Source: a candidate division CPR3 bacterium GWF2_35_18 (lineage in GTDB: Bacteria; Patescibacteriota; CPR3; GWF2-35-18). Taken from it: a stretch of 64,000 nucleotides of DNA. Both the position numbers and the translations under genes were made by a program. Below are positions 4,716-59,511 of this stretch, one piece after another. Numbering within the stretch: position 1 is the stretch's first letter; every line of letters starts with the position of its first letter. The DNA lies in contig MESW01000006.1 of NCBI GenBank assembly GCA_001771135.1, positions 4,870-68,869 on the forward strand. The letters are read 5' to 3'. Under the pieces are notes generated by a model. The model saw nothing but the letters and a program-made list of their open reading frames with translations, was not told the DNA's origin and ran no database searches.

Positions 4716-4724
4716 TAATTTAGT

Positions 4725-22131: not shown

Positions 22132-22164
22132 AATAATAAAGAAAAATTATAAGCGTAGTTTTTT

Positions 22165-22589
22165 GGTGGAGATGGGGGGATTTGCACCCCCGTCCAAAAG
22201 ATTTTCCCTAAAAAGTTCTACAGACATAGTCAGATGTTTTTACCTCCTATTCGCTTGCGCGGAGTTACTACTGGTAGATCATCTGACTTATCTATGATTC
22301 CAGTAGTAGTGTTGGGGTTTTAAAGTTCTTCATAATGCTTCCAACGGCAGCAAAACAAAGATTCTAGCTGTTTTATACTTCCAAGAATCCACTAGAAGAG
22401 ATTGCCTTGGAAATAGCTTATTTAGGCAAATGCAAAAGCATAAGAAGGAGCAGCAAAGCCGTCCTCGTTTCCTAAATCTGCATCGTTATAGTTTTTGGCA
22501 TTTAAAGCCTTATCTAGAAATTACGTGTTTACTAGAAAACCACGGTCTGCCTTTTTAAAGAGCTTCTTCTGTCAAAGCTAAACATCCCC
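22165..22589 (-). ncRNA. ssrA: tmRNA (ssrA)
   Basis: Reverse strand. 5' GGGGAUGUUUAGCUUUGACAG… 3' end …GGACGGGGGUGCAAAUCCCCCCAUCUCCACCA is a tRNA-Ala-like T-arm/acceptor (GGGGAUG pairs with CAUCUCC). Internal tag ORF GCC AAA AAC TAT AAC GAT GCA GAT TTA GGA AAC GAG GAC GGC TTT GCT GCT CCT TCT TAT GCT TTT GCA TTT GCC TAA gives (A)KNYNDADLGNEDGFAAPSYAFAFA*. smpB is adjacent. Confidence 0.8.
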
Positions 22590-22832: not shown

Positions 22833-23282
22833 TTACTCTCGATTTCTTTCTTTGAGCGCCACTGCAATGTCATGTTCAATGGCTTTTTTCTTCAATACTT
22901 CCCGTTTATCGTACTTCTTCCGACCTTGAGCTAGGCCAATTTCGAGCTTTATTAATCCCTTTTTTGCAAATATTTTTAGGGGGACAATCGTGAGTCCCGC
23001 CTGCAGTTTCTTCTGTAAATAATCAATCTCTCTTTTTTGTAGTAATAATTTCCTCGTTCGGGTCGTTTCTTCCTCAGCCATCGGCTTTTGATAGGAAGAG
23101 ATATGAACATTCAGCAAGATCGCCTCACCATTACGAATTCGCACAAACCCTTCTTTGAGACTCACATTTCCCTTTTTGACGCTTTTGACTTCCCAACCCA
23201 AAAGAGCGATTCCCGCGGTAAAAGTTTCGAGAATCGCATAATCAAAAGAAGCACGTTTGTTGACTTTAAATATCTGTGACAT
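22833..23282 (-). CDS. smpB: SsrA-binding protein SmpB
   Basis: NKRASFDYAILETFTAGIALLGWEVKSVKKGNVSLKEGFVRIRNGEAILLNVHISSYQ… matches the SmpB consensus. 149 aa, next to ssrA. Confidence 0.9.
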   Translation of the reverse strand: MSQIFKVNKRASFDYAILETFTAGIALLGWEVKSVKKGNVSLKEGFVRIRNGEAILLNVHISSYQKPMAEEETTRTRKLLLQKREIDYLQKKLQAGLTIVPLKIFAKKGLIKLEIGLAQGRKKYDKREVLKKKAIEHDIAVALKERNRE

Positions 23283-28625: not shown

Positions 28626-30551
28626 TTAAAAATCTTTAAATTTAAAGACAAAGATACAACCCTCTTCATTATAATTATCCAAACAGTAATCGTGAGTTAC
28701 ATAGCTTAATTCTAAAGCCTCATTTTGTTGTAATTCGGCAATTGAAAATGTATGTTCTCGCATCGGTTGCAATTTGGAATCCCAGACAAAATACTGCAGA
28801 TGGTTTTCTTTCACAATCTGCTGCAAACTGGAATCCTCTTTCAATTTATCCAGATTACTAAGGACTGTATAGCGATTTTGAAACTGATCTTCGGAAATAC
28901 TTTGCAATCCTTTATAGGGAAAGGTCAAAGGAATTTCGGTGAGAATCCCGATCCAATCGACAAAATCACTGGATCGATAATCAATTCCCCCAGAATAGAG
29001 ATAATGAATAAAAATGTCATTTAGAATCATCGTTTCAGGAAGAATCTCTTGAGATTGAAAGTAATCATAAACCGCAAAGATCTCTCTCTCCGGTGTTCGA
29101 ATAAACATCGTCGTGCGAAAAACTACCGCTTCTACAATTAGAGTTACAATCGAAAAAGTAAGAATCAGATAACTTGTCAGTGACTTCAAAAAAACACTCG
29201 GTGTTTTTTTAAACCACTCCCAGATAAAGTTCAAACCAAAAGCAGCCATCACACAGCTTGAGAAAATCATAAATTCGGTAATTCTCTGGATATCAAATAA
29301 AGGAAAGAAAAGGTTATATATTGACCCAAAAAGGTTAACAAAGACAACATCAATATAAATAAAAAGCACCAAAAGAAAACTAAAGATAACAAAAATAATT
29401 GGCTTTTTAGATGACTCCGATTGGCGATAATTTTTTTTAATCTGTGTTAACCCAGTCATAATAAAGACCGGAAAAACAATATTCACTAAAATAAAAAAAT
29501 AATTTAACCAATAAGAAAAAAAATTATTTATCTTCTCTCCGAAACCCAAGCTGGTATTGATCTGTATCTGAACTAAAGTACTTAGAACAAAATCAACTCC
29601 TCGGAACTGAATCAATCTTTGAATTACAAAAATTAAAAGTACTTGAAGTAAAAGTAAGCTTATATTTTGCCATTTGATTAACTTTTTCCCCTGGGTAAGG
29701 AAATAAATTCCCACGAAAATCAGAGTCATAAAGAATTCAGGAGAATGAATAAAAAATAAACCCAAACCTAAAAATAAAGTTAAGACTGTTAACTTTAAAC
29801 TTTTTGTATGAAGGGTTTTTATAAAAACAGCTAGATACTGCCACATAAAAGTAATCCCCCACAAAAAAGATAAACCTCCCCAAACACTTGGTCGAACTGG
29901 AAACAAAGAAAATAAGGGAGAAACAAAAGCGGTTAATAAAGAAATTCTACGATTTTTAAATACCGTGTTTGTAAGCAGATACAAAGAAATCGGCATCATA
30001 GAAACAATCAAAATGGTGGAAATATTGAGATTTTTTTCGATTGGATAATTGGTAACTTGATGAATTAAAGCTACAAAAGCATGCAATCCAAAAGGATAAA
30101 ATCTCTCAAAACCGAAACCGGTTTCAGTGATCTTTTTTACCAAACTGTAGTGAAAAGTAGTGTCATCCGCCGGAAGCGGAAAAGGATTCCCATAATATGT
30201 ATAGATCTGGACTAGCAGTAGTATTAACGTGGGAATAATTACAAAAATCCAGTCTTTGGAAAAATGAAATGAGCTGTTTTTAAGTGATTGCAACACAAAG
30301 CCTAATTGTCGATATTTAAAAAGGAGGTAAAAAACTAAAACAACGCAAAAGGAAATTAGAACTGTCTGCAATCTAAACGGGATTGCCATTTTTGAATAAA
30401 CGAAAAACAAAATTGCGTAAAAGGAAAGCGAGAGAAAAGGCACTAATGAAATTAGCAACTTATCAAATTTTTGCTTGTCTACCAAAAACCCCAATAGCAA
30501 TAGTCCTGGAAAAGTTAATAATAAAATAATAATTAAGATAGAAATAGTCAT
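28626..30551 (-). CDS. polytopic membrane protein, GT-C-fold glycosyltransferase-like (paralog 1)
   Basis: 12 or more TM helices. First extracytoplasmic loop carries PLPADDTTFHYSLVKKITETGFGFERFYPFGLHAFVALIHQ (a DD motif as in GT-C enzymes). Soluble C-terminal domain of about 150 aa. Paralogous to 30557..32191. Confidence 0.4.
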   Translation of the reverse strand: MTISILIIILLLTFPGLLLLGFLVDKQKFDKLLISLVPFLSLSFYAILFFVYSKMAIPFRLQTVLISFCVVLVFYLLFKYRQLGFVLQSLKNSSFHFSKDWIFVIIPTLILLLVQIYTYYGNPFPLPADDTTFHYSLVKKITETGFGFERFYPFGLHAFVALIHQVTNYPIEKNLNISTILIVSMMPISLYLLTNTVFKNRRISLLTAFVSPLFSLFPVRPSVWGGLSFLWGITFMWQYLAVFIKTLHTKSLKLTVLTLFLGLGLFFIHSPEFFMTLIFVGIYFLTQGKKLIKWQNISLLLLQVLLIFVIQRLIQFRGVDFVLSTLVQIQINTSLGFGEKINNFFSYWLNYFFILVNIVFPVFIMTGLTQIKKNYRQSESSKKPIIFVIFSFLLVLFIYIDVVFVNLFGSIYNLFFPLFDIQRITEFMIFSSCVMAAFGLNFIWEWFKKTPSVFLKSLTSYLILTFSIVTLIVEAVVFRTTMFIRTPEREIFAVYDYFQSQEILPETMILNDIFIHYLYSGGIDYRSSDFVDWIGILTEIPLTFPYKGLQSISEDQFQNRYTVLSNLDKLKEDSSLQQIVKENHLQYFVWDSKLQPMREHTFSIAELQQNEALELSYVTHDYCLDNYNEEGCIFVFKFKDF

Positions 30552-30556
30552 GGTAT

Positions 30557-32191
30557 TTAAAAATCACTATTTATCTGAAATATGTAAACGCAGTTTTCAA
30601 AAACTTCTTCATTACATTGAGCTGAAGAAGAGTATATTTGACTAAAGATGTCCTTTTGCTTTAAAAAATTCATGTTTAGATATTCATGATGATGATTCTG
30701 CCTTACATTTTCAGACCAATAAACATATTGAAGATTCTCTTCCTGAATATATTGTTGCACCAGCTTATCCTGCTTTATTGATTGAATATTTTCAAGAACA
30801 TAAAGTCTTTTTTGCATCTTTTCATTACTCGCAGTCTCAATATAGGGAAACGTAACTTTTGATTTTGTCAGAACATTTATCCAACTGGCTGAATCAACAG
30901 CTCTATATACTTTTTGTCCAGCACTATAACCCCAACAAATATCATTTAAAATAAGTCCCTCCTCCAAATTATTATCAATCCATTTTATCGATTCTACAAC
31001 CTCTTTGGTTGGAGAATTTTTAATGACGTTAGTTTTCAACACAATTGAAAATAAAATAATCGGAACTAAAACAAAAACAATAGTTAGATATAACCACATT
31101 GATTTTTGGAGATGGCGATCTGAATTGCGATACCAGGTAATAAAACTTTGTAGCCCGAAGCTCGCAAAATAAGCAATCGGAAAGGTAAAAAATTCAAAAA
31201 AACGAAACTGATCTGCCCAAGGAAAGGTAAATTTATACAGGAAATGGAACAAATGCAAAGTGCTTATATCTAAATATATTAATAATAGTAAAACTAAAAA
31301 AGTAAAAGTTATTTTATCGGAAGACTCCAAATTTTTTCTATGTAACCTCGTTAAGATTCCCCAAATGCAAAAAACTAGCAGTGTTAGATTCACTGAGGAA
31401 ACGAGGTAACCTGGACCCATAAGGATAAAATCCTGTAACCATTTGAAAAAAGAGGTCGGAAGATAGGACAATCCCCAAAACCCAACCGTAACTGGAAAAA
31501 TAGTATGAATCAGATAGTAAATCAAAGTAAAAACGCTCAGGTTTAAAATTATCCATAAGTATAGATTAATGTCTTTGATAGATTTTTTCCAATTAACGAT
31601 AAAGTAAATAGTTAAGAATAAAGCGGAAGTAACAAGTTCTGGACTGTGAATTAAAAATAATCCTACCGCCAAGATAACACTAATCAGAATTTTAATGATT
31701 TTTTTACTCTCCAGGGAAGAAATTGTAAATCCGAGATAAAACCATAAAAACGTAAGTCCCCACAGAAAAGGATAGCCTCCCCATCTATAAGGACTAAGTC
31801 CAAAAACACAAGCAAGGGGTGTTATTATTGCAATCAGTAAGGAAACTTTCTCGTTTTTGGTCAAAACTTTAGCTAAATAATAAAAAGAAAACGGTAAAAG
31901 AGAAACTACAAATACTGTTGTTCCAAACAAAAGATACTCTATGGGAATATTCGTAATCTGATATAAAAACGCCACAATAATATGCATCAGAAAAGGGTAA
32001 AAACCCTGCATATCAATTCTTCCTAAAGCAACGATCTCCTTTATATATTCATAATGGATAATCGTGTCATCTCCGGTTAAAGGAAAAGAGGTTACCGAAA
32101 AAGAATATAGCTGTATCGATGCTAAAAATAAAGCAATTACGGTTAAAATCAGAATATTTTTTCTTTGGTTTAAAAAAGTTATTAGATTCAT
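30557..32191 (-). CDS. polytopic membrane protein, GT-C-fold glycosyltransferase-like (paralog 2)
   Basis: Same architecture. First-loop motif FPLTGDDTIIHYEYIKEIVALGRIDMQGFYPFLMHIIVAFLYQ aligns with that of paralog 1. Confidence 0.4.
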   Translation of the reverse strand: MNLITFLNQRKNILILTVIALFLASIQLYSFSVTSFPLTGDDTIIHYEYIKEIVALGRIDMQGFYPFLMHIIVAFLYQITNIPIEYLLFGTTVFVVSLLPFSFYYLAKVLTKNEKVSLLIAIITPLACVFGLSPYRWGGYPFLWGLTFLWFYLGFTISSLESKKIIKILISVILAVGLFLIHSPELVTSALFLTIYFIVNWKKSIKDINLYLWIILNLSVFTLIYYLIHTIFPVTVGFWGLSYLPTSFFKWLQDFILMGPGYLVSSVNLTLLVFCIWGILTRLHRKNLESSDKITFTFLVLLLLIYLDISTLHLFHFLYKFTFPWADQFRFFEFFTFPIAYFASFGLQSFITWYRNSDRHLQKSMWLYLTIVFVLVPIILFSIVLKTNVIKNSPTKEVVESIKWIDNNLEEGLILNDICWGYSAGQKVYRAVDSASWINVLTKSKVTFPYIETASNEKMQKRLYVLENIQSIKQDKLVQQYIQEENLQYVYWSENVRQNHHHEYLNMNFLKQKDIFSQIYSSSAQCNEEVFENCVYIFQINSDF

Positions 32192-33063
32192 AAATCATTC
32201 TTCGTAAACACAATCTCGATACTTTCTTTATTAAAAAATATTAAGGGAATAAATAAGGGTGAGGTTAGAATAAAAGCTAATTCTCGAGCTCCAATCAGCT
32301 TTACCTTTTGATAAATATATCTTTGCATCAAATAAAGAAGATATAAATAGTCAGAAATTGGAAAGTGTTTATTGGCTGTTACTTTGAAACCCGATTTTTC
32401 AAGTAATAAAATCAGACCTCGATGGGAAAAATGGTTAAGGTGTCTCGGAATATCAGCGTTCGATGGCCATTCTGCTTTAAAAGTTCGAGACCAAAAACCA
32501 TCAAATCTCGGTAATTCTAGATACAATATCCCATCATCTTTCAAGATTCTCTTCAGCTCTTTTAATATTTGTTCAGGAATTTCTAAATGTTCTAATACAT
32601 GATTCAAAGTAATCACATCAAAAAACTGATCCGCATATTTCAACTTTTCACTCTTATAGCAATCAACTTTTAAATCTCTTTTTTTACTTAATTTATAAGC
32701 AGAAAGACTTGCATCAATACCATAACGATCCCATCGCTTTACTGAAAATGTTTCCAAAAAACTGCCGTCTCCACACCCAAAATCAAGAATTTTCCCCTGT
32801 TTTTTATACTTTGATATTTTCTTTTGTCTGGGAGTATATATAAAAAGTTTTTTGATTCTAAATAAAGTTTTTTGAATAACACCCTCCCCTTGATAGTATT
32901 GCTCTGGATAGAATTCATTATCTGGAGACTGACGGGGAAAAGTAAATCCAGAGCGACATATCGGACAGATTTGAATGCGATAAATTCCTATCGAAGCGTA
33001 CTCGCTTAAGGAATTATTACAGCATAAACATTGTCGACCTTTTTTACCATTATGTTTAACCAA
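32188..33063 (-). CDS. class I SAM-dependent methyltransferase with an N-terminal zinc ribbon
   Basis: Zn ribbon CLCCNN…CPICRSG. Motif I ILDFGCGDGSFLE. Post-I acidic residue and motif II present. Confidence 0.8.
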   Translation of the reverse strand: MVKHNGKKGRQCLCCNNSLSEYASIGIYRIQICPICRSGFTFPRQSPDNEFYPEQYYQGEGVIQKTLFRIKKLFIYTPRQKKISKYKKQGKILDFGCGDGSFLETFSVKRWDRYGIDASLSAYKLSKKRDLKVDCYKSEKLKYADQFFDVITLNHVLEHLEIPEQILKELKRILKDDGILYLELPRFDGFWSRTFKAEWPSNADIPRHLNHFSHRGLILLLEKSGFKVTANKHFPISDYLYLLYLMQRYIYQKVKLIGARELAFILTSPLFIPLIFFNKESIEIVFTKNDL

Positions 33064-33898
33064 TAGTAGTTCCTTTATAAGTGAAAAAGTTAAATAATTT
33101 AATAATAATTTTATTAGGAAGTAACAATAGTAGCATTTCTAAAAGATATCGCCAAACACCTCTAAAGCTGATAAATGGTTTTTTAAAAATCCACTTTTTC
33201 TTAATTTTTAAGGTTAAAATTAGCATTCTCTTTACTCTATTTAACTTGTAACTTTGTTCTGATATCCGGTATTGAATTAGAAAGTCAGGTAAATTTACAA
33301 GTTGATACTTATGAAAAGCAAATTGAAACCAAAGGTCGTATTCTTCCGCTCCGGGAAAGTTGGAATCATATTTTCCGCCCAAAGTTTTCATATCTGATAC
33401 TCTAATCATCGTCGCTGGATGACAAAGTGGAGATCTAACTGGTAATTCAGATATGATTTCTTTTGAACTGACTTTGTAATTTCTGACTGTAAGTAATTCT
33501 CCTGTTTCGTTAATAATCTGAACCTGTCCCCCAACAGCCGCATAATCTGGGTTAGATTCTAAAAAAGCCACCTGTTTTTCAATTCGTTGTTTTATACAAA
33601 TATCATCCTGATCTATAACCATATAATATTTACCCCGAAGATGAGACAAGCCTACATTGCGGTTTTTGGCAATTCCGAGGTTAACGGGGTTTTGATAAGA
33701 CTTAATTCTTTTATCTCCACCTGCATATTTTTGAATAATTTGGAGACTGGAATCAGTAGAGCAATCATCGATAACAATAAATTCAAAGTTAGAATAGGAT
33801 TGAGACAAAATACTCTCAATCGTAAATTGAAGATATTTTTCGCCGTTATATACCGGCATGACAATTGAAACTAAAGGTTTATTGAAATCATTTTTCAT
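33056..33898 (-). CDS. glycosyltransferase family 2
   Basis: VSIVMPVYNGEKYLQFTIESILSQSYSNFEFIVIDDCSTDSS and a DxD-type motif downstream. Confidence 0.85.
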   Translation of the reverse strand: MKNDFNKPLVSIVMPVYNGEKYLQFTIESILSQSYSNFEFIVIDDCSTDSSLQIIQKYAGGDKRIKSYQNPVNLGIAKNRNVGLSHLRGKYYMVIDQDDICIKQRIEKQVAFLESNPDYAAVGGQVQIINETGELLTVRNYKVSSKEIISELPVRSPLCHPATMIRVSDMKTLGGKYDSNFPGAEEYDLWFQFAFHKYQLVNLPDFLIQYRISEQSYKLNRVKRMLILTLKIKKKWIFKKPFISFRGVWRYLLEMLLLLLPNKIIIKLFNFFTYKGTTIG

Positions 33899-34208
33899 GC
33901 AAAGCCTTCTTCCTAACGACCGTTTCTATTCTTTTTTCAATCTTCTCCAATTTCAAAATTATTCGGAAAACCAAATAGAATAAAACTACGATTGATAAAT
34001 AAACAACCGAATCAATTCCTCGTTGAATGTTTATCAAGTTAGCAATCAATACCGTTACGTCTGCGAACCAAACTACCAAAACAACGGCACTCCAAATACA
34101 TGACCAAAATATGAATGACAGAATTGAAAGCTGATGTTTTTTATAATTCACCCAAATTTCGAGTAGCACGGCGGCTACAAAAATGGAAACAACAATTTGT
34201 AGAAACAT
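33888..34208 (-). CDS. small 3-TM membrane protein (DUF2304-like partner of polyprenyl-phosphate GT2 enzymes)
   Basis: 106 aa, three TM helices. Sits between two GT2 genes, an arrangement commonly seen downstream of DPM1-like synthases. Confidence 0.35.
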   Translation of the reverse strand: MFLQIVVSIFVAAVLLEIWVNYKKHQLSILSFIFWSCIWSAVVLVVWFADVTVLIANLINIQRGIDSVVYLSIVVLFYLVFRIILKLEKIEKRIETVVRKKALHEK

Positions 34209-34209
34209 T

Positions 34210-34893
34210 TTATAACTCCTTAATTAAAAGTTTATATATAGTTTCAAAGCCTTTGATAAGTCCTTGTCCTTTAGACATTGAATATTTCGTATATACAGGA
34301 ACGATTATGACTTCTTGATATTTCAGCTTGTTTTTCTTCATCTCTTTCAAAATCTCCAAACTGATTTCCATATCGCGGGAAAGTAGCTTCATTTTTGATA
34401 AAGCCTCTTTTTTGTAACCGCGTAATCCGCATTGAGAATCACGAGTCGTGACTCCAGACAAAAAAGTATTTAAGATGTTTGCGACAGTCACAAATTTTTT
34501 CCGTAAAAAAGGAGTCTTATGTTTATTTGTATCTACTCGAATTCCAAGTACGACTTCACATTTTTCTTGATGAAGCCTTTGATTAACTTTTATAATATCA
34601 CTAGTGAGATGCTGACTATCAGCATCACAAGTAATCACATGTTTATAGTTGTGATCTAAAGCATATTGAAATCCAGTCCTCAAGGCCGCTCCATATCCAA
34701 GATTAACTAGGTGTCTCACATATTGAATTTTATAATTTTTGAGAACATTATTTGTCCGATCAGTACTACCATCATCAACGACAAGAATACTTCTAAAACC
34801 ACCATTTTGGAGATCTTTCACGACATCGCCAATAGTTTTCTCCTCATTAAAAGCGGGAATAATAATTAAAGTATCTTGATTCATTGTTTGCAT
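34210..34893 (-). CDS. GT2 polyprenyl-phosphate sugar synthase (DPM1/GtrB-like, e.g. dolichyl/undecaprenyl-phosphate mannose or glucose synthase)
   Basis: LIIIPAFNEEKTIGDVVKDL…ILVVDDGSTDRT…YGAALRTGF…CDADSQH. About 227 aa, typical of DPM1-like enzymes. Confidence 0.85.
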   Translation of the reverse strand: MQTMNQDTLIIIPAFNEEKTIGDVVKDLQNGGFRSILVVDDGSTDRTNNVLKNYKIQYVRHLVNLGYGAALRTGFQYALDHNYKHVITCDADSQHLTSDIIKVNQRLHQEKCEVVLGIRVDTNKHKTPFLRKKFVTVANILNTFLSGVTTRDSQCGLRGYKKEALSKMKLLSRDMEISLEILKEMKKNKLKYQEVIIVPVYTKYSMSKGQGLIKGFETIYKLLIKEL

Positions 34894-35071: not shown

Positions 35072-35473
35072 ATGAACTCTATGAAAAACTTAAGTAAAAA
35101 GGCTGGTCTCATTCTTGCTCAGGTAGTTACTGTTTTTTCAATTGCAGCCACTCAAATTTATGCCGCTACTATCTCTCAACCTATTTCTTCAGCAACACTT
35201 ACCGTCGGTGGTGTTGTTAACTTAATTGTAAAAATAGTTTTTGGAGTCGGTATTTTAATTTGTGTCATCTTCCTCGTTTTCTATGGTATTAAATATATTA
35301 CCGCCGGTGATGATGTAAAAGCCATTGAAGGGGCTAGAAAAGGAATCACAGGAGCAATTATTGGTTTAATTGTTATCCTATTAACCTTTGCAATTATTAA
35401 GTTAGTTGCAACTTTCTTGGGTGTTAATGGAGGAGATATCTTTAGTATTCTTCCTGACAGCTATAGCTTCTAA
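35072..35473 (+). CDS. small secreted 'pilin-like' protein, paralog 1 (signal peptide plus two-helix hairpin with the conserved YITAGDD…K…AIIGLIV motif)
   Basis: GGGGGG RBS 5 nt upstream of the ATG. Signal peptide …AATQIYA. Mature part: hydrophobic helix (NLIVKIVFGVGILICVIFLVFYGIKYITAGDDVKAIEGARKGITGAIIGLIVILLTFAIIKLV). The topology is as in TrbC/VirB2-type pilins. Paralogous to 37292..37930 and 37940..38479. Confidence 0.5.
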   Translation: MNSMKNLSKKAGLILAQVVTVFSIAATQIYAATISQPISSATLTVGGVVNLIVKIVFGVGILICVIFLVFYGIKYITAGDDVKAIEGARKGITGAIIGLIVILLTFAIIKLVATFLGVNGGDIFSILPDSYSF

Positions 35474-35496
35474 CAAATTTTGTACTTGTCGAAAAA

Positions 35497-35527
35497 CCCC
35501 GGTCAAACCCGGGGTTTTTCTTTTTAG
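35497..35527 (+). terminator. rho-independent terminator
   Basis: AAAACCCCGGgtcaaaCCCGGGGTTTTTCTTTTT directly after the paralog-1 stop. Confidence 0.7.
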
Positions 35528-35750
35528 ACCACATTTTATACCTATACAACTCCAATTTGCAATTCAATTTGTTGTTATATGGGTTAATACTCAACTACTT
35601 TTGTTACAAATTAGAGTTAGTTGAGTATATAATAATCTTAACCTCTTTTTCTTGACGGAACTACTCTTCCCTGCTAAAACTTATTTACAGACATCACACT
35701 TCAAATCAAACCATAAAAGTTGCTAGTGATATCTTAATAGACAAACATTT

Positions 35751-37187
35751 ATGCTGAAGAAATATTTACCCTACTTTTTATTGACAATTATTGTCCTTAC
35801 TTTTTCTTTGACACTTCTGTTGAACCTACAGTATCCACGCGAAATCTGTAATGATGAGTTTTATTATGTACCAGCCGGTCAAACGATCTGGCAAACCCCA
35901 AACGAACCGAACCTTGAACATCATCCTCCTCTCGCAAAATATCTAATCGGTTTTGGAATTATGACTGTAGGAAATTATTCAATTGGTTGGAGACTGATTC
36001 CGGCTTTATTTGGAATTATCGGTTTAATCCTAGTCTTTTTTCTTACTAAAGAAGTTTTATCTCTATCAGCAAATGGAGATCGAAAGGTAACGATTTTTTT
36101 CTCCCTCTTTGCTCCATTTTTACTTGCTTTTGATTTTCTCTATTTCACGATGTCTCGACAGGCGATGCTGGATATCTTTGTTACAACATTTTTAATCGCA
36201 ACCTCTTTATTCATTTGGAAATATATTCAGACGCAACGTAAAATCTTTATTATCTTACTGGCAATATTTTTTGGTTTAGCTCTCGCTTCCAAGTGGACGA
36301 CTATTCTTTTTGCGCCTTTATTTCTATTTTTAACTCTTAAATATACTAAAACCAGAAAAATTCAAAAGAAAAGCTTTAAGATAGTGATGTTTGAATATCT
36401 GCTGATTGGATTAATTGGTGCGACTGTTTATCTTTGTACTTATATCCCCTATCTCCTAAAAAATAATGCTGGTGAATTTATGATTCTGCAAAAAGATATT
36501 TTGGTAAGAATGTTATATACAAAAGAGACAAACGGAGGAGGAACTTCACCATTTAATACAATCTTCTGGCCTTTCTTTCCTAGCAACACCCTCTCCTGCT
36601 ATTTTGACTATGAAGATAATGTTAATCCTCACAGCTTATCGATTATCAGTAATCCTCTAATAATCTGGTTCTTTTGGCCAGTTTTGATCTACAGTTTCTA
36701 TCAAGCTTTCAAGAAAAAAGAGATAAAGCGCTTTTTTATCCCGATAATTATTATTTGTCTCTATCTTCCCTGGCTTGCGGTTGAACGAGAAAAATATTTT
36801 TATTACATGACCCCTGTTATCCCTTTTTTATGTATTTTGATTGCTCAAATGGTCTTTGATTTTATTACAACAAAAGGAAAAAGTGGTTTGAACAACATAA
36901 AACCTCAAAACCCTATTTTTCTCCCAAATAAAGACCTCTTAGATAAAATCATCATCTTTCTTTATAAATTACAGGAAAAAACCCATAAAGGTAAACTCTT
37001 CCAAAAACTTTCGAAAAAAGCAGATACTCTGATTGCAAATAAATTACTAATATATATATTAGTAATTTGTTATCTACTATTAGTTATTTTATTATTCATC
37101 CTCTATTATCCTCTTTTAAATGGTTTACCCGTTTCCGAAAGCTATCGAAATACAGTTACTTTTTTTTGGCCGTTTTTATTTAAATAA
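35751..37187 (+). CDS. GT-C glycosyltransferase of the PMT/ArnT type (GT39/GT83; dolichyl/undecaprenyl-phosphate-sugar : protein or lipid transferase)
   Basis: First-loop motif DEFYYVPAGQTIWQT…LEHHPPLAKYLIGFGI (DE…HPPL.K is diagnostic of the PMT_2/ArnT families). 11 or more TM helices. Confidence 0.75.
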   Translation: MLKKYLPYFLLTIIVLTFSLTLLLNLQYPREICNDEFYYVPAGQTIWQTPNEPNLEHHPPLAKYLIGFGIMTVGNYSIGWRLIPALFGIIGLILVFFLTKEVLSLSANGDRKVTIFFSLFAPFLLAFDFLYFTMSRQAMLDIFVTTFLIATSLFIWKYIQTQRKIFIILLAIFFGLALASKWTTILFAPLFLFLTLKYTKTRKIQKKSFKIVMFEYLLIGLIGATVYLCTYIPYLLKNNAGEFMILQKDILVRMLYTKETNGGGTSPFNTIFWPFFPSNTLSCYFDYEDNVNPHSLSIISNPLIIWFFWPVLIYSFYQAFKKKEIKRFFIPIIIICLYLPWLAVEREKYFYYMTPVIPFLCILIAQMVFDFITTKGKSGLNNIKPQNPIFLPNKDLLDKIIIFLYKLQEKTHKGKLFQKLSKKADTLIANKLLIYILVICYLLLVILLFILYYPLLNGLPVSESYRNTVTFFWPFLFK

Positions 37188-37291
37188 CTTTTTAAAGAAA
37201 GATCGCATTTCCACTTGCCCCCTAATGTTTCCTATGCTAATATTCTTTTGTAAGGGAATTCCATACTTTTGAACTCAAACAAATTGAGCAT

Positions 37292-37930
37292 ATGAATAAT
37301 AAACTACCACTGAAACTCGCTGTAAATATTGTTATTACAATTGTTTCTTTATTATTCTTTTTTACCTTTATCCCTATCAACAACACTGCTTCCGCTGATG
37401 GCCCCTGTTTATGCGTTTCCGGAAAATGTGCTGGTTGTTCTGCGGCGGTAAATGATCTTGCGTGTGGACTAAATACAGATATCTGTGACAATGCGCAGAA
37501 AAGATACTCCTGTGAACATACTTTATTATACCAATCTCCTAGCAACCCAACCTTTGCCGCTCCAGGAAGATATCTTTGCAGTATCAGCTCTGATCCTGCT
37601 GATCGATATCCAACCACTTTAAATATGGCTTTAAAGGGTTCCTGGTCAGAGGTTTTCAAAACCTGCTTCTGCTCCGCCGGTCAAATGATTCAAAAGGTTA
37701 TTGATATCGCGATCTATTCGATCTCCGGTATTGCCCTAATAGTTTTAGCTTTGGGTGCGATTAAATATATTACCGCTCAAAACAATCCCGATAAAATCAT
37801 CGAGGCTAAAGACACAATTTTGGCTGGAATTGTAGGCCTTATTTTAGTTCTTTTCAGCCTAGCAATTATCAATCTTTTTCAGGGACAGCTTCCAGGTAGC
37901 TGGGGAATAAACTTTTTAAATATACCTTAA
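37292..37930 (+). CDS. small secreted 'pilin-like' protein, paralog 2, with a Cys-rich N-terminal domain
   Basis: Signal/TM MNNKLPLKLAVNIVITIVSLLFFFTFIPI. Cys-rich module DGPCLCVSGKCAGCSAAVNDLACGLNTDICDNAQKRYSCEH. C-terminal conserved IKYITAQNNPDKIIEAKDTILAGIVGLILVLFSLAII. Confidence 0.5.
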   Translation: MNNKLPLKLAVNIVITIVSLLFFFTFIPINNTASADGPCLCVSGKCAGCSAAVNDLACGLNTDICDNAQKRYSCEHTLLYQSPSNPTFAAPGRYLCSISSDPADRYPTTLNMALKGSWSEVFKTCFCSAGQMIQKVIDIAIYSISGIALIVLALGAIKYITAQNNPDKIIEAKDTILAGIVGLILVLFSLAIINLFQGQLPGSWGINFLNIP

Positions 37931-37939
37931 GCATAAAAT

Positions 37940-38479
37940 ATGAAACGTTTTACCATTAAAATCACTAAAATAATCTTAATGCTTTCATTACTCATTATTC
38001 CTCTGAGTAGCATTCTACAAAATCCGACACTGGCTGCCTGTACCTGTATAAATGATTTATGTGTTGCTGGAGCAGCCGGAGATTGTATCGCTTCTCGTGC
38101 TGGTGCTCCTTGTAAATATGACAATGACTGTTCAGTTCTTTCTGATGTTAACTGTACTGCTTGCAGTATTATTACCTTTGTTTTTAAAGTTATTCTTCCT
38201 TGGACTTTTGGTATTGGAATTTTAGCCGCGGTTGTTTTTCTAGTCATTGGCGGTATCCGTTACATAACAGCCGGTGATGATCCCAAAAAAATATCTGATG
38301 CTAAAGGGACTGTTACCTGGGCGGTAATCGGACTTGTCATTCTCATTATAGCCGGATCGATTGTTCGTCTTATATGGTTATTCTTTGGATTTGAAGAAGG
38401 AAAAATATTCTTAATCCCCACGACAACTGCTGACATACCAGGTCAGGAACCTGTCTTAGATTGTATCTTGTGTGAATAA
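37940..38479 (+). CDS. small secreted 'pilin-like' protein, paralog 3, with a Cys-rich N-terminal domain
   Basis: Signal peptide …NPTLA. Cys-rich module ACTCINDLCVAGAAGDCIASRAGAPCKYDNDCSVLSDVNCTAC. C-terminal conserved IRYITAGDDPKKISDAKGTVTWAVIGLVILIIAGSIV. Ends in a CILCE tail. Confidence 0.5.
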   Translation: MKRFTIKITKIILMLSLLIIPLSSILQNPTLAACTCINDLCVAGAAGDCIASRAGAPCKYDNDCSVLSDVNCTACSIITFVFKVILPWTFGIGILAAVVFLVIGGIRYITAGDDPKKISDAKGTVTWAVIGLVILIIAGSIVRLIWLFFGFEEGKIFLIPTTTADIPGQEPVLDCILCE

Positions 38480-38584
38480 AGAATTTTAGAAAAATTGACA
38501 ATTAAAAACTGAAAATCTTAAAATATATATCAACCGGTTTAAAAATCTGCTTATTTTTAGATTTTTAAAGAAAAGGCCTTAATA

Positions 38585-41500
38585 ATGAAGAAAAAACTGC
38601 TTAAATTATTTCCATTCTTAGTCATTATTGCGACATTCCTTTCCCTATCGCAACCACTTTTTTCACCGGCTTTAATTGAGGCCAATCCTCCTGCAGATGT
38701 TTTTACCGGTCAAATTATCCCCGCTTTTATAGGTAACGAATATGATCCCTCTGTTGCTTTTCAGGAATTAGCCGGCTCGACAGTCTATGTTTTTGCGTAT
38801 GACAACTGGGAAGCAGCCTCTGATAGAATTGTTGTGGGAAATAAAGCAATTAAAACTCAGATAAGGGCTGATGGTTCTTTCCAGGTGATGGGACTTCCAC
38901 ATGCTTCTTATTATGGAGTATATTTTCCTTACGACCAATATGGTCCTTATGAACCACGAAATGGTAGTGGTACAGAATATTCTTATAGCTGTTCCTTTCC
39001 TTCCCCTCCACTGGGATCATGTGACGCCATTTGGGGAGGAAATGCCCCTGTTTATCCTATCCCTGGATTGGATGATTACTGCTGTGTTCCTCCGACTCGA
39101 GTAGCAAATACGATCAAAAATACTCCTTTCCGTGCTCCAGAACCAGATGATAATATTATCGATGTCTTTTCTTATGCTCAAGCTATATATAATGGAACCT
39201 CTCTTATTCCTACCCAAATAGCCGATGAATTTATCAAACCTGAAGGCAAGGCAATCTTCGTTACTTCAAATAATAAACTCGATATTGAAAACCATATCAA
39301 TGTTTTTCCCGTAGTTCCAACCTCAGTTTTAAAAATAAAAATTGATACTGAACAGTATGGAAATAGTATCGAAAATAGTGATAGAAGTCAGCTAAAACTT
39401 GGTTATGCAATCGCACACCGTCCGGTTTCAGTGACTGCAACTAGGATAGGATATTACCGTATTGAAATGTGTACTAATATCTTTGGGATACCCTGGGATT
39501 GTGGAATCGATTATGGTACAAAATATCTACCAATTGGTGGCCCAGCAATTACGGGAAGAACTGATGAAAATGGAAACTTTAAAGCCTATGCTCCTTCAGG
39601 ATATTATCATATTAAATATGTCTTTGAAGATGGAACTGAGAATATGGCTTTTCGAGAGATTGATGCCTTGGGAGAAAATCCTGAACCAGCCGACTCTAAT
39701 TTTGGAGTAACTACGGCTCTTTTAAAATCATTGTCTCAATGGAAAACTGATCCTACTGATACCTATATAGAAGACAAGCCTCAAAACGTAATAGACCCTC
39801 CTCTATACAAAGTTTATCGTAAAGGAGTAAGTATTTGGGGTTCAGTTACTAGACCATTTGTAGTTAAAGATAATAACCGCAGTCAATTCAATATACCAGT
39901 CTCTACGTTTTATACGGGAAATGATGGCTCTGATACAGGAGGACAAAGCAATACAATGCCAGATTTAGCGGTCTATACAGAAACGAACTATTCCGCGATT
40001 GATTTGGGAGTAGAGGTAAAACAAGATTTTGAAGCTGTAAATATGTTTAATAACTCCGGAGTTATTTCAGCAGACCATGATGATAACTATTGTGTAACGA
40101 ATAAAAATGCTTGTAACTTTTCCACTGTCAATAAATATGGGATTTTTTATATGCGTACCTCAGAAGCATATTCTTTTATTAATGGTAAAATAAGATTAGC
40201 CGGTTATAACTCAGCAACGAATGAAGTCTTTTTAGACAGTCTACCCCTCTATCCTGATGTTGGCAGTACTGATTATATTGAACCCCAACCACAAGCCCTA
40301 CAAGGATTAATAAGTGGACCAAATAGTTCATATAGTTATAACTTTTCCACAAAAAAACATGATAATAGAGGTATTTACGCAACTGTAAGAGATAATAGAG
40401 GACTGGCTGTACCTGGAGCTCAAGTTACTATTGCTCCTAATGAACCCGATCTAAAAAGCAGTAGTGTCGCTCAAACACAAGGAATTAGTTTATTAACTGA
40501 TGCTGATGGATCAGTGTATCTTTCTCCTCACGTCTTCTCTGAAAACGCAGAATTAATGACAGATTCGGCAACCTGTAACGGTTCTGATGATAGTGTTGCT
40601 GAAAATGGATATACCTTAATAGCTTCTCAAGGAGATACCTTTAAAGCTTCTCTTGATCTTACCAAAGATCAGATTTGTGATTCTATTGACGCGCAACAAT
40701 CTGTTGAAATTGCCAGTATTAAGGGAAAAAATGTCTACACTAACGAACCAGGAATGATTCAATTAGCCAAAGCATTACAGACAGATAATATTTTTACGGT
40801 AAGCGCCGCGGAAACCGAATCTGCTTGCCAAATATATAAACAAGATAGTAGGACGGTCGCTCCCTATGTCCCAAATGATCCAGTGGCAAACGAACAAGAA
40901 TGTGTGAATCTTTATGGATATTTTCTTTGTACACCAGACCCATTTGTTACGATACAAGGAGAATTTTTTGGCGGTGTTTCCGAAAATGTGATAGTTTTGG
41001 CTGCAGGTGATGCTTCTGGAAGCTATCGATCGACAGAAATTATTAAAGAAGAAGTTATTCCTAATCCGGAAACAACTCTTCATTCATCATCTGGATTTGG
41101 TGGTTTCTATGATACTACTAATAAAAAATTATATATTCACATTCCCTGCGCCTGGAAATCAGCTCAACTGAAAATAGAGGCTGGTGAGGAAAAAACAGAT
41201 AACTCTCAAGGAGATGTTGAACTTACAGTTATCGAACAGATCCGAGTTTATCTCATTCAATTCGGTGCAAATTTAGCCAAAGGTTTTGCTGGCGCAAGAG
41301 ATGCAGTTGACATTGGTGGGAGCTTTGATTACGACGAAGCTGTTGAAGAGATTGATGAAGTAGCAGAATCAGGTATCGACTCAATCATAAATAAAGGCCT
41401 TTCTGAGCGTCATTTTATAAAAGGTGATGCCCGAAAAGATGAAATGCAAGTCGCTATCTCAGAAACAAACGTTAGTGGTACACCCCCCAGCTATACCATA

Positions 41501-43654
41501 AATCCTCCTGCGGCCACATTCTTTTTGAAACCAGCTTGTCATGTTTTTGATTTGTTAAATTATCAAACTTGGGGTAATTTTGCTTGCAATCTCATTGAAG
41601 GTATGGGGAAATTTTTACAAGGCAGCATGGAATTTTTAGAAGATACTATTCTTCATACAAAGCCGATTTCAGAGCTATCCACAATTACTACATTATGGAA
41701 TCTTTCTCGTAATATTAGTAATGGAATAATTATTATTTTGGTTTTAATCTTTGCGGTTATGTATATGTTCCGAATGGATTCCAAAGATCTTCCTCTAAAA
41801 GAGCTTCCAATGAAAATTGTGAAGGCAGTGATCTTAATTAATCTCTCTCTCCTCTTCTGTCAGCTATTTATTGATATTTCTAATGTAGCTACAAGATCAA
41901 TATTCCTGATGGTTCAGAATGCTTTTTCACCTACTGGACAGACAGCTGTAATTAACTTTGCTTCTTTTGCAGCGATTATCACGACAATAGCTCTTTCGGC
42001 TGGAGCCTCAGGAGTGACAGCAGGCGTCGGTATAGCAACTGCAGTGGTTGCTTCTGGTGGAACAGCTTTAGTCGCTATAGGTATTGGAGTCATTGTTGCT
42101 GTCCTTGCCTTCTTTATGGCAATTATTACCTTAGCTGTAATTATTTTAATTCAATTTGTTGTTCGTTTAATGGTCATCTATCTTTGTGTTATTCTCGCTC
42201 CGCTTCGATTCCTTATGGGAATACTCCCTCAAGGCGAAAGTTTTGTAAAAATTTGGGATACAACCTTTTATAGTTTTGTTTTTATGCAGGTATTAGCGGC
42301 ATTATTTCTCAATGTCGGAATTGCTCTCATGTCTAATATCCCTAGTGGAGCTGGTTTAGAAATTGTTATTTCTCAATTGGCCGTAGGAGTAGCAATCTTT
42401 ATGGTGGCCTTGAAGTCTCCAAGCTTAATCCTACAACTTCTTGGTGGTGGTGGAATGGCTGGAAAATTAGCTGGTGGAGCTGGTGAGACTCTTACTGAAT
42501 GGAGACAGGGACAACAAGAAAAAATGGGTGCTGAAGCAGTTGCAGGTCGCGCAGGAGAATTCAAAGCTGAATCTCAAATGCATGGCGGTGGAGTAAGAGG
42601 CTTTGGAAAAGCGACCCTTTCCAGAGTGCCTATAATTTCAACTTACACAAAAGCAAAAAATGCGAACACTCAAGCTCAAGCAAATAGACTGTTCACAATG
42701 AAAAGAAACCAAGATATTCAGAAAGAAGGACAAGGATCAGTTCTAGCTCAAGGAACAAAAGGTCAAAGTGGAGATCTAACTCATATAGAACAAACCGAAG
42801 GCGGTAATGGTGTTTTACGATCGGTCAATGCTTGGGGTAGCGGTAGAAATGATCTATCTGCAGAAATTGATACCAACAGAAGTCCTACTGCTAATCAGTA
42901 TGTTCAAGATCATAATAGAGATATTGAGAATGATCAAGAGGTCAAAGATATTGACCAACAAGCAAATACTGAACAAACACAACAAATTGAAGCTATCATT
43001 AGACCTGATGTTGAAACTCAGGTAAATAATGAAATTAATGCTTCAAGCCCGACTTTAAGTCTTGATGATGCTTCTGTGACTCAAGCAGCCCAAAGTAGAA
43101 TTAACATGGGTGGAGCGGCTGGAAAGACGATTGATCAAGTGAAAGAAGACGTTAGAAGAGAAAGAACTGCAGCTAGAGCCCCAATGATGGCAGCCAAGAT
43201 GAAAGAACAACCTCGAATTGATCAAGCAATGGCAAGTCATCAAGCTGAAATCCAAAAGATTAAAGATGAAGCAAATAAAAAGAAAATGGAAGCACGCAAG
43301 AAAAAAGGTTATATCGTTACTGATCCTAATACTGGGACTGCTAAAGTCAATGGACAACAATTACTAGAGATTGCGGAACAAGAACTTAAAAATGATCCAA
43401 AACTGAAAAAAGAAGTTGAAAGACAGATAAAAGCGGCTGGACTAGCAAAGACTGTTAACGCAAAAGCTCTACACGCTGCAAAACTTGCTGAAGGAACTGA
43501 AGGTGGAGTAGAGGTTGGAACTCGACAACAAAGAAATATACAAAATCGCCGAAGACAAGCTGGAGCTGGACAAAGAGTCAATTATGCCGCCGCTGGAATG
43601 AATTATCGAACAGGAGATCTCTCTGGGCTTAATGAACCGGAAGAAAATATCTAA
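38585..43654 (+). CDS. giant (1689 aa) envelope protein: secreted N-terminal domain of about 1080 aa plus a C-terminal polytopic Gly/Ala-rich TM region (VirB6/TrbL-like) and a charged, Q-rich cytoplasmic tail
   Basis: Signal peptide MKKKLLKLFPFLVIIATFLSLSQPLFSPALIEA. About 7 TM helices between residues 1075 and 1360 (e.g. IIIILVLIFAVMYMF; ALSAGASGVTAGVGIATAVVASGGTALVAIGIGVIVAVLAFFMAIITLAVIILIQFVV; FYSFVFMQVLAALFLNVGIALMS). Then LLGGGGMAGKLAGGAGE and about 330 aa of K/E/Q-rich tail. No nucleotide-binding motif. Confidence 0.5.
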   Translation: MKKKLLKLFPFLVIIATFLSLSQPLFSPALIEANPPADVFTGQIIPAFIGNEYDPSVAFQELAGSTVYVFAYDNWEAASDRIVVGNKAIKTQIRADGSFQVMGLPHASYYGVYFPYDQYGPYEPRNGSGTEYSYSCSFPSPPLGSCDAIWGGNAPVYPIPGLDDYCCVPPTRVANTIKNTPFRAPEPDDNIIDVFSYAQAIYNGTSLIPTQIADEFIKPEGKAIFVTSNNKLDIENHINVFPVVPTSVLKIKIDTEQYGNSIENSDRSQLKLGYAIAHRPVSVTATRIGYYRIEMCTNIFGIPWDCGIDYGTKYLPIGGPAITGRTDENGNFKAYAPSGYYHIKYVFEDGTENMAFREIDALGENPEPADSNFGVTTALLKSLSQWKTDPTDTYIEDKPQNVIDPPLYKVYRKGVSIWGSVTRPFVVKDNNRSQFNIPVSTFYTGNDGSDTGGQSNTMPDLAVYTETNYSAIDLGVEVKQDFEAVNMFNNSGVISADHDDNYCVTNKNACNFSTVNKYGIFYMRTSEAYSFINGKIRLAGYNSATNEVFLDSLPLYPDVGSTDYIEPQPQALQGLISGPNSSYSYNFSTKKHDNRGIYATVRDNRGLAVPGAQVTIAPNEPDLKSSSVAQTQGISLLTDADGSVYLSPHVFSENAELMTDSATCNGSDDSVAENGYTLIASQGDTFKASLDLTKDQICDSIDAQQSVEIASIKGKNVYTNEPGMIQLAKALQTDNIFTVSAAETESACQIYKQDSRTVAPYVPNDPVANEQECVNLYGYFLCTPDPFVTIQGEFFGGVSENVIVLAAGDASGSYRSTEIIKEEVIPNPETTLHSSSGFGGFYDTTNKKLYIHIPCAWKSAQLKIEAGEEKTDNSQGDVELTVIEQIRVYLIQFGANLAKGFAGARDAVDIGGSFDYDEAVEEIDEVAESGIDSIINKGLSERHFIKGDARKDEMQVAISETNVSGTPPSYTINPPAATFFLKPACHVFDLLNYQTWGNFACNLIEGMGKFLQGSMEFLEDTILHTKPISELSTITTLWNLSRNISNGIIIILVLIFAVMYMFRMDSKDLPLKELPMKIVKAVILINLSLLFCQLFIDISNVATRSIFLMVQNAFSPTGQTAVINFASFAAIITTIALSAGASGVTAGVGIATAVVASGGTALVAIGIGVIVAVLAFFMAIITLAVIILIQFVVRLMVIYLCVILAPLRFLMGILPQGESFVKIWDTTFYSFVFMQVLAALFLNVGIALMSNIPSGAGLEIVISQLAVGVAIFMVALKSPSLILQLLGGGGMAGKLAGGAGETLTEWRQGQQEKMGAEAVAGRAGEFKAESQMHGGGVRGFGKATLSRVPIISTYTKAKNANTQAQANRLFTMKRNQDIQKEGQGSVLAQGTKGQSGDLTHIEQTEGGNGVLRSVNAWGSGRNDLSAEIDTNRSPTANQYVQDHNRDIENDQEVKDIDQQANTEQTQQIEAIIRPDVETQVNNEINASSPTLSLDDASVTQAAQSRINMGGAAGKTIDQVKEDVRRERTAARAPMMAAKMKEQPRIDQAMASHQAEIQKIKDEANKKKMEARKKKGYIVTDPNTGTAKVNGQQLLEIAEQELKNDPKLKKEVERQIKAAGLAKTVNAKALHAAKLAEGTEGGVEVGTRQQRNIQNRRRQAGAGQRVNYAAAGMNYRTGDLSGLNEPEENI

Positions 43655-59283: not shown

Positions 59284-59511
59284 AATTATAATGACTAGGG
59301 ATATGTGTAGTACTTAGTAAAAAGTTGATTGTAATAACCATTATTCCGTATTATTTAATGTTGATAACTTTTAAGTTTATGTAATCAAATTTGTAGTCAA
59401 AAATATTGATATAAAGCCATAATTATCTGTGCATAAATTCAGTAAAATGTGAATAAAATTGTGGATAATTTCTGGATAACATTTTATACAAATAAACTAC
59501 AAAAACCCTCT
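59284..59511. promoter_or_regulatory. DnaA-box cluster downstream of dnaA (possible second half of a bipartite oriC)
   Basis: Perfect DnaA box TGTGGATAA at 59460..59468. A near-consensus CTGGATAAC follows 3 nt later. AT-rich surroundings. Confidence 0.45.

Follow-up and report, generated by a model that had tools for sequence, protein, structure and literature searches.

A likely VirB2-like pilin array, with cysteine-rich heads on two of its three members, in a CPR3 bacterium

Pilin arrays in Patescibacteria and a likely one in CPR3

VirB2-like pilins, as recognized by Pfam model PF18895 and related profiles, are found in 1948 VirB4-containing assemblies of Patescibacteria (Quinonero-Coronel et al. 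2025, PMC12102498). In 383 Patescibacteria assemblies, the pilin genes form arrays of 2-11 members, in tandem or one gene apart, with an average identity among array pilins of 25%; Microgenomatia and Saccharimonadia are particularly rich in such arrays (PMC12102498). Patescibacteria's type IV secretion system (T4SS) is often encoded close to dnaA and dnaN, relaxases are absent, and the system is regarded as non-conjugative (PMC12102498). The pilin series is essential in Southlakia epibionticum, as is the T4SS (Wang et al., PMC10633639; also PMC12857230). Here, we describe a locus of this type in a 64,000-nucleotide (nt) stretch of DNA (“the window”; contig MESW01000006.1 of assembly GCA_001771135.1, forward-strand positions 4,870 to 68,869) from the candidate division CPR3 bacterium GWF2_35_18. 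Three genes in the window, which we refer to as p1, p2, and p3, likely constitute a VirB2-like pilin array of a Patescibacteria-type (monoderm, MPF_FATA-related) T4SS, and two of the encoded proteins carry cysteine-rich N-terminal “heads”. The organism is an ultra-small bacterium from the anoxic groundwater of Rifle, and a hypothetical protein recorded for it is 100% identical to p3.

The arrangement of the array is one already published for Patescibacteria, and the system is not of a new kind; since arrays of this sort have been described (PMC12102498, PMC10633639), the locus adds a member to a known kind. As in S. epibionticum ML1 (SEML1_0006-0019; PMC12102498), several divergent PF18895 genes lie in a row, here with hairpins that are 27-40% identical in local pairwise comparisons. 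The row may be interrupted by a single non-pilin gene, VirB6 is adjacent, dnaA is close, and the vicinity has neither a relaxase nor a coupling protein. Likewise shared is a monoderm-type T4SS, which includes PrgI and VirB4 as well as a TrsD/TraC-like protein. There are also differences from the published arrays. The lineage is CPR3, assemblies of which were not found in the supplementary tables of PMC12102498; the genes form two modules ~26 kb apart on either side of oriC; the interrupting gene encodes a GT-C glycosyltransferase; and the two pilins that lie beside VirB6 are cysteine-headed, with the headless one forming a transcription unit of its own.

In the only Patescibacterium that is genetically tractable, epibiotic growth requires both the T4SS and its pilin array. 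The CPR3 locus offers several concrete hints about such a system: a highly conserved headless pilin, predicted to be strongly translated, is a candidate for the filament body; two fast-diverging headed pilins with invariant cysteines are candidate host-contact modules; a glycosyltransferase gene is embedded in the array; and the machine is split across the origin.

Three genes that share a two-helix hairpin

All three genes are on the plus strand. The p1 gene (35072-35473; a GTG at 35066 is an alternative start) encodes a headless protein of 133 amino acids (aa); p2 (37292-37930) and p3 (37940-38479) encode headed proteins of 212 and 179 aa, respectively, and the start of p3 is 9 nt past the stop of p2. 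These are the only open reading frames (ORFs) in the window with a pilin domain. In each protein, as read from hydropathy segments, an N-terminal hydrophobic signal segment is followed by two long hydrophobic helices, between which is a short loop with charged residues, Y-I-T-A-G/Q-D/N-D/N-x-K/D-x-I. The hairpins are encoded by nt 35207-35398 (p1), 37706-37879 (p2), and 38198-38374 (p3). The C-terminal segments align column by column, with the I-x-Y-I-T-A and G-L residues being invariant. In an AlphaFold2 model of p3, helices span residues 70-110 and 115-148 around a GDDP loop, with a confidence (pLDDT) of >90.

The three proteins differ in what precedes the hairpin. The signal peptide of p1 ends in IYA↓AT, and the mature N-terminus is Ser/Thr-rich; its single cysteine is within helix 1. 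The p2 signal peptide ends in ASA↓DG and is followed by a mature head of ~95 aa (nt 37400-37684), with ten cysteines distributed over residues 39-127. In p3, where the signal peptide ends in TLA↓A, the head is shorter (42 aa, residues 34-75; nt 38036-38170) and has eight cysteines, with two more, at positions 175 and 178, in a C-terminal tail with the sequence D-C-I-L-C-E (D-C-x-x-C; nt 38462-38473).

The original prediction, made from the DNA alone, had already placed three paralogous ORFs here, and much of it holds up: the C-terminal segments that it quoted are exact, each protein has the signal peptide and two-helix hairpin that it described, p1 is headless, and a PMT-type gene does separate p1 from p2 and p3. 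It had also given the heads of p2 and p3 9-10 cysteines in 40 aa. The heads are real, with a density that needs correcting: the ten cysteines of p2 are spread over more than twice that length, and the p3 head accounts for only eight of that protein’s ten.

Assignment to the T4SS pilin family

The assignment of p1-p3 comes from the hairpin. The Pfam T4SS_pilin model, PF18895, spans a 71-residue hairpin alone, and its gathering threshold of 26.6 bits is exceeded by each of the three proteins (p1, 32.5; p2, 27.5; p3, 44.5 bits). With E values from 9e-8 to 2e-11, chance can be discounted as the source of the similarity. The helix-loop-helix core thus matches the model; the 45-95-aa cysteine-rich heads and the tail fall outside it. 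Matches to NCBIfam NF045849, a model of pilin-like proteins from Mycoplasma integrative and conjugative elements (ICEs), are sub-threshold for all three (24.6-30.1 bits against a 40-bit cut-off; E values from 3e-7 to 1.5e-5). A phmmer search against 1.84 billion cluster representatives returned 8973 relatives at E<=1e-3, indicating that the family is very large. We consider it very likely that p1, p2, and p3 are T4SS pilins. A profile of the three paralogs had no match among PDB chain sequences.

Some members of the family have an unusual architecture. Many PF18895 proteins (e.g., P0008, P0015, P0024, P0025, P0049, and P0056) consist of 2-16 tandem hairpins in one polypeptide, separated by short linkers that contain CxC, and some of these concatemers terminate in a large cysteine-rich domain. 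One concatemer with six repeats (L097:1777-3435) is encoded within an array of ordinary single pilins.

Two better-known families resemble p1-p3. Diderm MPF_T pilins of the TrbC/VirB2 type (PF04956), such as Agrobacterium tumefaciens VirB2, share the long signal peptide, two hydrophobic helices, a short polar loop, and the adjacency of T4SS core genes. By contrast, the CPR3 host is monoderm, partners corresponding to VirB5, VirB7, VirB9, and VirB10 are absent here, and classical VirB2 lacks the N-terminal ectodomain heads of p2 and p3. The Mbov_0395 family of Mycoplasma ICEs (NF045849) likewise consists of small two-helix proteins from a monoderm, MPF_FATA-type system. However, its members are carried on ICEs and are conjugative; the system described here is chromosomal, and no relaxase was seen in ~84 kb. 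The original prediction had proposed conjugative pilins of the TrbC/VirB2 type. The pilin part of that proposal stands, with all three proteins passing PF18895. The conjugative part is not supported, since neither a relaxase nor a coupling protein is among the ORFs of the window and its 10-kb flanks (~84 kb in total) and Patescibacteria systems are described as non-conjugative (PMC12102498); nor is the classical TrbC threshold reached. The check that it had suggested, whether homologs flank VirB4 or VirB6 genes, gave a positive answer: the gene after p3 encodes a VirB6-like protein, and in two Microgenomates-type loci (L009 and L010) a trio of pilin genes is contiguous with VirB4.

A VirB6-like protein and putative wall hydrolases downstream of the pilins

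The gene directly downstream of the pilins (38585-43654, plus strand) encodes a 1689-aa protein with a signal peptide, a ~1000-aa ectodomain, a TrbL-like polytopic domain (aa 1029-1284; nt 41669-42436), and a ~400-aa charged tail. A transmembrane (TM) map places 6-7 TM segments at aa 1040-1287. Because the protein has no direct Pfam match, its assignment to VirB6 required a transitive and profile-based route. The TM core matches a TrbL_4/TrbL protein, P0156, both in a phmmer search of 5.8 billion sequences (E value of 8.5e-5) and in a pairwise BLASTP comparison (7e-13), and a profile built from 21 family members matches the same protein with a probability of 98.4% (E value of 4.6e-15). Three of the 21 homologs match Pfam TrbL (PF04610) directly. 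In addition, the core matches large VirB6-like genes beside VirB4 in 21 loci from Saccharibacteria or other lineages. Among the lineages sampled, the family is confined to CPR3, WWE3, and Microgenomates-type lineages. Taken together, the matches show that the 1689-aa protein is an extended VirB6. Extended VirB6 proteins are described in a 2025 review (PMC12857230). As in Rickettsiales RvhB6 and the MPF_FA VirB6 homologs (PMC12857230), a TrbL-like polytopic core is combined with very large hydrophilic domains; unlike in those proteins, the hydrophilic parts here are a ~1000-aa N-terminal ectodomain and a ~400-aa charged C-terminal tail. A promoter-like site (TTGACA-18-TAAAAT; 38495-38524, plus strand) precedes the gene, with 11/12 positions matching the consensus, the consensus match being the only basis for this annotation. 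Rfam and tRNA scans of the region from 34.8 to 38.7 kb found nothing.

Four further plus-strand genes follow. The first (43838-45406) encodes a conserved, soluble 522-aa protein that is syntenic in CPR3 relatives; its ortholog, with 33% identity, occupies the same position in a diverged CPR3 relative (L001). The second (45544-50610) encodes a secreted 1688-aa protein with a signal peptide, 82 cysteines, and a C-terminal M23 domain (nt 50224-50484; Peptidase_M23, 69.5 bits); long stretches of this protein are rich in Cys, Asp, and Asn. Genes found at the corresponding position in L009 and L010 match it, and its parts match separate genes there (one for a protein of 749/765 aa, the other for an M23 protein), which suggests a fusion. 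The 1688-aa protein is a candidate for the VirB1-type cell-wall hydrolase of the system. The third gene (50620-51744) encodes a 374-aa bitopic membrane protein with one N-terminal TM segment in the TM map; a VirB8-like role for it is only a guess. The fourth (51748-52641) encodes a secreted 297-aa protein with ten cysteines that is homologous to the C-terminal domain of the L009 M23 protein, with tblastn and phmmer matches to that protein and to L017. Judging by this homology, it is probably a second wall-hydrolase module. No direct Pfam or NCBIfam match was found for the 1689-, 522-, 374-, or 297-aa proteins, and PDB sequence searches with the 1689- and 297-aa proteins yielded nothing useful.

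A VirB4 module on the other side of the origin

The window is chromosomal, with rpoD, dnaG, smpB, tmRNA, dnaA, rnpA, yidC, and jag. The origin is marked by dnaA (59512-60855, minus strand) along with the genes rnpA, yidC, jag, and dnaN (63414 to past 64000), and a very AT-rich stretch from 58000 to 61500 (GC content of 0.24-0.29) around dnaA and rpmH/rnpA fits oriC. Genes for VirB4, PrgI, and the TraC-like protein are absent from the window: the cluster has no Walker A motif, and tblastn found no match to the L009 and L010 counterparts. A scan of genome contigs with a Microgenomates VirB4 identified 80 loci, none of them from a CPR3 genome. The flank to the right of the window, on the same 86.5-kb contig, was retrieved by means of the jag protein. 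There, after dnaN, is a minus-strand module (window-equivalent 64595-68896, outside the window; L098:11698-15999) that encodes a 619-aa VirB4-type ATPase (P-loop_TraG, 100.9 bits; also AAA_10 and DUF87) with 62% identity to a Microgenomates VirB4, a 224-aa TraC-like/TrsD-like protein, and a 572-aa fusion of PrgI (VirB3) with a CarboxypepD_reg domain. The two parts of the fusion are separate genes in L009 and L010. The pilin/VirB6 module is 7-25 kb from the AT-rich stretch on one side, and the VirB4 module is ~4 kb from it on the other. The T4SS is thus complete, albeit split into two modules that flank dnaA/oriC and are ~26 kb apart on one contig.

Related loci show the same genes in one piece. 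In L009 and L010, the genes are contiguous: PMT genes and then DUF2298 precede three pilins, of which the first has eight cysteines; after these come an extended VirB6, a pair of unknown genes, M23, a gene of 186 aa, PrgI, a gene for a CarboxypepD_reg protein, TraC-like, and VirB4. The CPR3 relative L001, in which p3 is 64% identical, has the same gene order as the window; the sole difference is a gene for a 91-aa GIY-YIG nuclease (L001:7278-7553, plus strand) between p1 and the PMT gene, which is absent from the window.

Cysteine-rich heads

Orthologs keep the cysteine pattern of the heads. All ten cysteines of p2 are invariant in its ortholog in L001, which is 54% identical. The head motif of p3 and the C-terminal (I/L)-D-C-x-x-C tail are kept in orthologs (P0002-4, P0007, and P0010) at 41-61% identity. 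Between orthologs, heads are 51% identical and hairpins 72-75% (for p2, 51 and 72%), meaning that the heads diverge faster. The total number of cysteines is even in 8/8 members of the p3 clade, and in one of these, seven cysteines precede the hairpin and one follows it, implying a disulfide that links head and tail. The hairpin topology puts head and tail on the same, outer side, and in p3 the predicted bond would join Cys72/75 to Cys175/178. Disulfides are favored because the cysteine counts are even, and the heads of p2 and p3 are, on this pattern of counts and conservation, reasonably likely to be disulfide-bonded.

Headed pilins are not limited to CPR3. In other arrays linked to VirB4 (L049, L058, L064, L074, L076, and L085 from Saccharibacteria; L009, L010, and L042 from Microgenomates), the first gene usually encodes a larger pilin of 190-300 aa, with 6-12 cysteines in an N-terminal ectodomain; most other members of these arrays have none or two. 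The head sequences of these first-gene pilins are unrelated. Given the cysteine-bearing first genes in arrays from both lineages, headed pilins look like a general feature that has gone unremarked. Indeed, neither the cysteine-rich heads nor the CxxC tail are described in PMC12102498, PMC10633639, or PMC12857230, and the text of PMC12102498 contains no mention of disulfide and that of PMC10633639 none of cysteine.

A glycosyltransferase gene within the array

The gene between p1 and p2 (35751-37187, plus strand) encodes a polytopic 478-aa glycosyltransferase of the PMT/ArnT type with a GT-C fold, with matches above threshold to both PMT_2 (46.3 bits) and PMT (35.0 bits). A D-E motif (...CNDEFYY...) follows TM1, in the first outer loop. 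The score against the NCBIfam equivalog PrMnsylTfPmt is 76.9, far under the cut-off of 800, so the enzyme is PMT-like and not an ortholog. The position of the gene is kept in L001, where the ortholog is 62% identical, and PMT-type genes are also upstream of the pilins in L009. No glycosyltransferase inside a pilin array is described in PMC12102498, PMC10633639, or PMC12857230, and the terms glycosyl, mannosyl, and PMT do not occur in the text of PMC12102498.

Potential partners of the enzyme are encoded nearby. A divergently oriented pair (33888-34893, minus strand) consists of a 227-aa GT2 protein (Glycos_transf_2, 89.9 bits) and a small membrane protein of 106 aa (DUF2304, from precomputed Pfam annotation). 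It is plausible that this pair acts as a polyprenyl-phosphate-sugar synthase, which could feed the GT-C enzyme. The pair is part of a surface-glycan cluster (28626-32191 and 32188-34893, both minus strand) comprising two polytopic proteins with DUF6541 along with a methyltransferase, two GT2 proteins, and DUF2304; the cluster is back-to-back with the pilin array and syntenic in L001.

Signs of a major subunit

Several features set p1 apart from its paralogs. It is the most conserved gene of the neighborhood, with 85% identity to its L001 ortholog as compared with 33-62% for neighboring genes. Its Shine-Dalgarno match, computed against a generic anti-Shine-Dalgarno sequence, is the strongest of the 44 genes in the window (-15.7 kcal/mol); p2 and p3 have none. 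Lastly, p1 has its own terminator, of a strong intrinsic type: a terminator-like hairpin directly 3′ of the gene (35491-35520, plus strand) has a 12-bp stem with seven G-C pairs and a T run. Such signs for a headless paralog are not described in PMC12102498, PMC10633639, or PMC12857230. They are consistent with p1 being the putative major subunit and p2 and p3 minor ones, an assignment that we hold to be an even call.

Possible mechanism

In the mechanism that we envisage, the pilin precursors would be inserted by Sec and then cut by signal peptidase I at the AxA site, leaving in the membrane a hairpin whose charged loop (ITAGDDxKxI) is cytoplasmic and whose two termini are outside. VirB4 would pull subunits from the membrane, and VirB6 would be the platform on which these polymerize to give a short pilus or conduit; the M23 and hydrolase proteins would make the opening through which it crosses the wall. 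The body of the filament would be built from p1 as the abundant major subunit. By contrast, p2 and p3 would be of low abundance, with their heads on the outside and probably disulfide-bonded, the p3 head being stapled to the C-terminal CxxC tail. The heads could act as tip or host-contact modules, the role of VirB5 in diderm systems, and the interposed GT-C glycosyltransferase may O-glycosylate exposed Ser/Thr-rich segments of the pilins. Extraction by VirB4, assembly on VirB6, the roles of the subunits, and the glycosylation are all inferred. As to whether a real extracellular filament is formed, we lean slightly toward the view that it is.

A bolder possibility is that p2 and p3 represent a so far unrecognized class, the “adhesin-on-a-pilin”, in which a fast-evolving, disulfide-stapled contact domain is fused to a VirB2-like hairpin. 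In epibiotic Patescibacteria, such proteins would form the cap or the decoration of the T4SS filament, choosing the host cell and standing in for the missing VirB5, with the array’s dedicated GT-C glycosyltransferase modifying the filament. We regard this idea as speculative and rather unlikely. The likeness to the VirB5 tip adhesin of diderm T4SSs would be a functional analogy only, with the headed pilins proposed as low-copy, surface-exposed contact modules; they have no sequence or fold relationship to VirB5 and, unlike it, carry the putative contact domain as a fusion with a pilin hairpin. If the idea were correct, the cysteine-bearing first genes of the Microgenomates and Saccharibacteria arrays would make headed subunits a phylum-wide design principle, and if headed pilins do serve host recognition, they would be natural markers with which to predict the host range of uncultured bacteria of the candidate phyla radiation (CPR).

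Evidence against a pilus and alternative explanations

A number of observations weigh against a pilus-forming array. No pilus has been observed for any Patescibacteria T4SS, and a pilus is called a possibility in a recent review (PMC12857230). The gathering score of the classical TrbC/VirB2 model, PF04956 (27.9 bits), is not reached by p3 (18.2 bits, E value of 0.003) or p1 (13.7 bits, E value of 0.07), and p2 has no match. When the pilin family was compared by hhalign with an alignment of genuine MPF_T VirB2 sequences (Ti VirB2 plus five plasmid homologs), helix-loop-helix matched in register over 60 columns, albeit weakly (probability of 42.5%, E value of 2.6e-4). The concatemers of 2-16 hairpins in one chain are hard to square with simple polymerization of subunits, and a membrane-resident role fits them at least as well. 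VirB4 is not adjacent to the pilins in the CPR3 genome. The evidence for the predicted major and minor subunits is confined to conservation, the generic anti-Shine-Dalgarno sequence, and a terminator scan. Similarly, O-glycosylation of the pilins by the PMT-like enzyme, suggested by adjacency and by the Ser/Thr-rich exposed segments (ATISQPISSATLT in p1 and PTTTAD in p3), is possible but doubtful, the link between enzyme and pilins being one of adjacency only. A phmmer search with the PMT of the window found no homolog in the 80 VirB4-centered loci, including those of Saccharibacteria, and the association of PMT with pilins is thus lineage-restricted.

Some of these observations would be expected if the hairpins were permanent membrane anchors that do not polymerize. 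In that case, p2 and p3 would be surface display proteins, each with a cysteine-rich ectodomain on a two-helix anchor, and the family would accompany the T4SS as, e.g., a stator, an adhesin, or a channel lining. The concatemers do resemble polytopic membrane proteins, a pilus has been observed neither in Patescibacteria nor in monoderm T4SSs in general (PMC12102498, PMC12857230), and fold searches, in which matches were generic, could not distinguish the hairpin from anchors like the ATP-synthase c-subunit. However, the proteins belong to a pilin-family profile, with sub-threshold TrbC matches and an in-register alignment with genuine VirB2; the linkage to VirB6 and VirB4 is tight and widely conserved; and the very high conservation of headless p1 suits a self-assembling subunit. 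Permanent anchors are, in our judgment, improbable. The small size, two-TM topology, and generic fold matches would also suit membrane peptides that have no part in secretion and resemble holins, bacteriocins, or immunity proteins, but no phage or bacteriocin genes are nearby, the family is linked to VirB6 and VirB4, and 3/3 proteins pass the Pfam pilin model, making this explanation extremely unlikely. The same is true of ordinary lipoproteins processed by signal peptidase II, which the original prediction had named, together with the lack of a relationship to any pilin family, as what would undo a pilin assignment. The p3 signal peptide ends in L-A-A-C, compatible with the lipobox pattern that was tested at the signal-peptide end ([LVI][ASTVI][GAS]C). 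By contrast, p1 and p2 have no lipobox, and the p3 orthologs, which read AYAFC, THAAC, TQAAC, VWGAC, and VFASRPPGC, conserve the AxA site of signal peptidase I and not the lipobox; moreover, all three proteins belong to PF18895 and have two more TM helices. We therefore reject the lipoprotein explanation. For T4SS pilins with heads on the outside, a final question is whether the heads might be metal-binding modules, of the Zn or Fe-S type, as opposed to disulfide-knotted domains. Their CxC, CxxC, and CxxxC spacings are similar to metal-binding motifs, the groundwater from which the organism comes is anoxic, and neither a Dsb nor a VKOR gene was seen in the window. Against metal binding are the outward-facing position of the heads, after a signal peptide; the even cysteine totals throughout the clade, including the 7+1 split across the hairpin; the lack of any Zn-ribbon-type pattern of His, Asp, or Cys that is kept across lineages; and the abundance of cysteine in the other secreted proteins of the cluster, such as the 82 in the M23 protein. 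We judge metal binding to be unlikely.

Other genes in the window

Four further features lie elsewhere in the window. A gene at 20925-21743 (minus strand) encodes a 272-aa protein with the C-terminal nuclease domain of Shedu SduA, an anti-phage defense protein, in an ultra-small CPR genome. tmRNA, with the tag AKNYNDADLGNEDGFAAPSYAFAFA, adjoins smpB (22164-22589 and 22833-23282, both minus strand). A 1006-aa GGDEF-domain protein (14723-17743, minus strand) hints at c-di-GMP signaling, and a stand-alone response regulator is encoded nearby (20446-20838). Lastly, at 4002-5642 (plus strand), a secreted Golvesin_C/CBM-like protein is followed by a protein with SUKH-1 (SMI1_KNR4) and DUF4274 domains, a pairing reminiscent of toxin-immunity loci.

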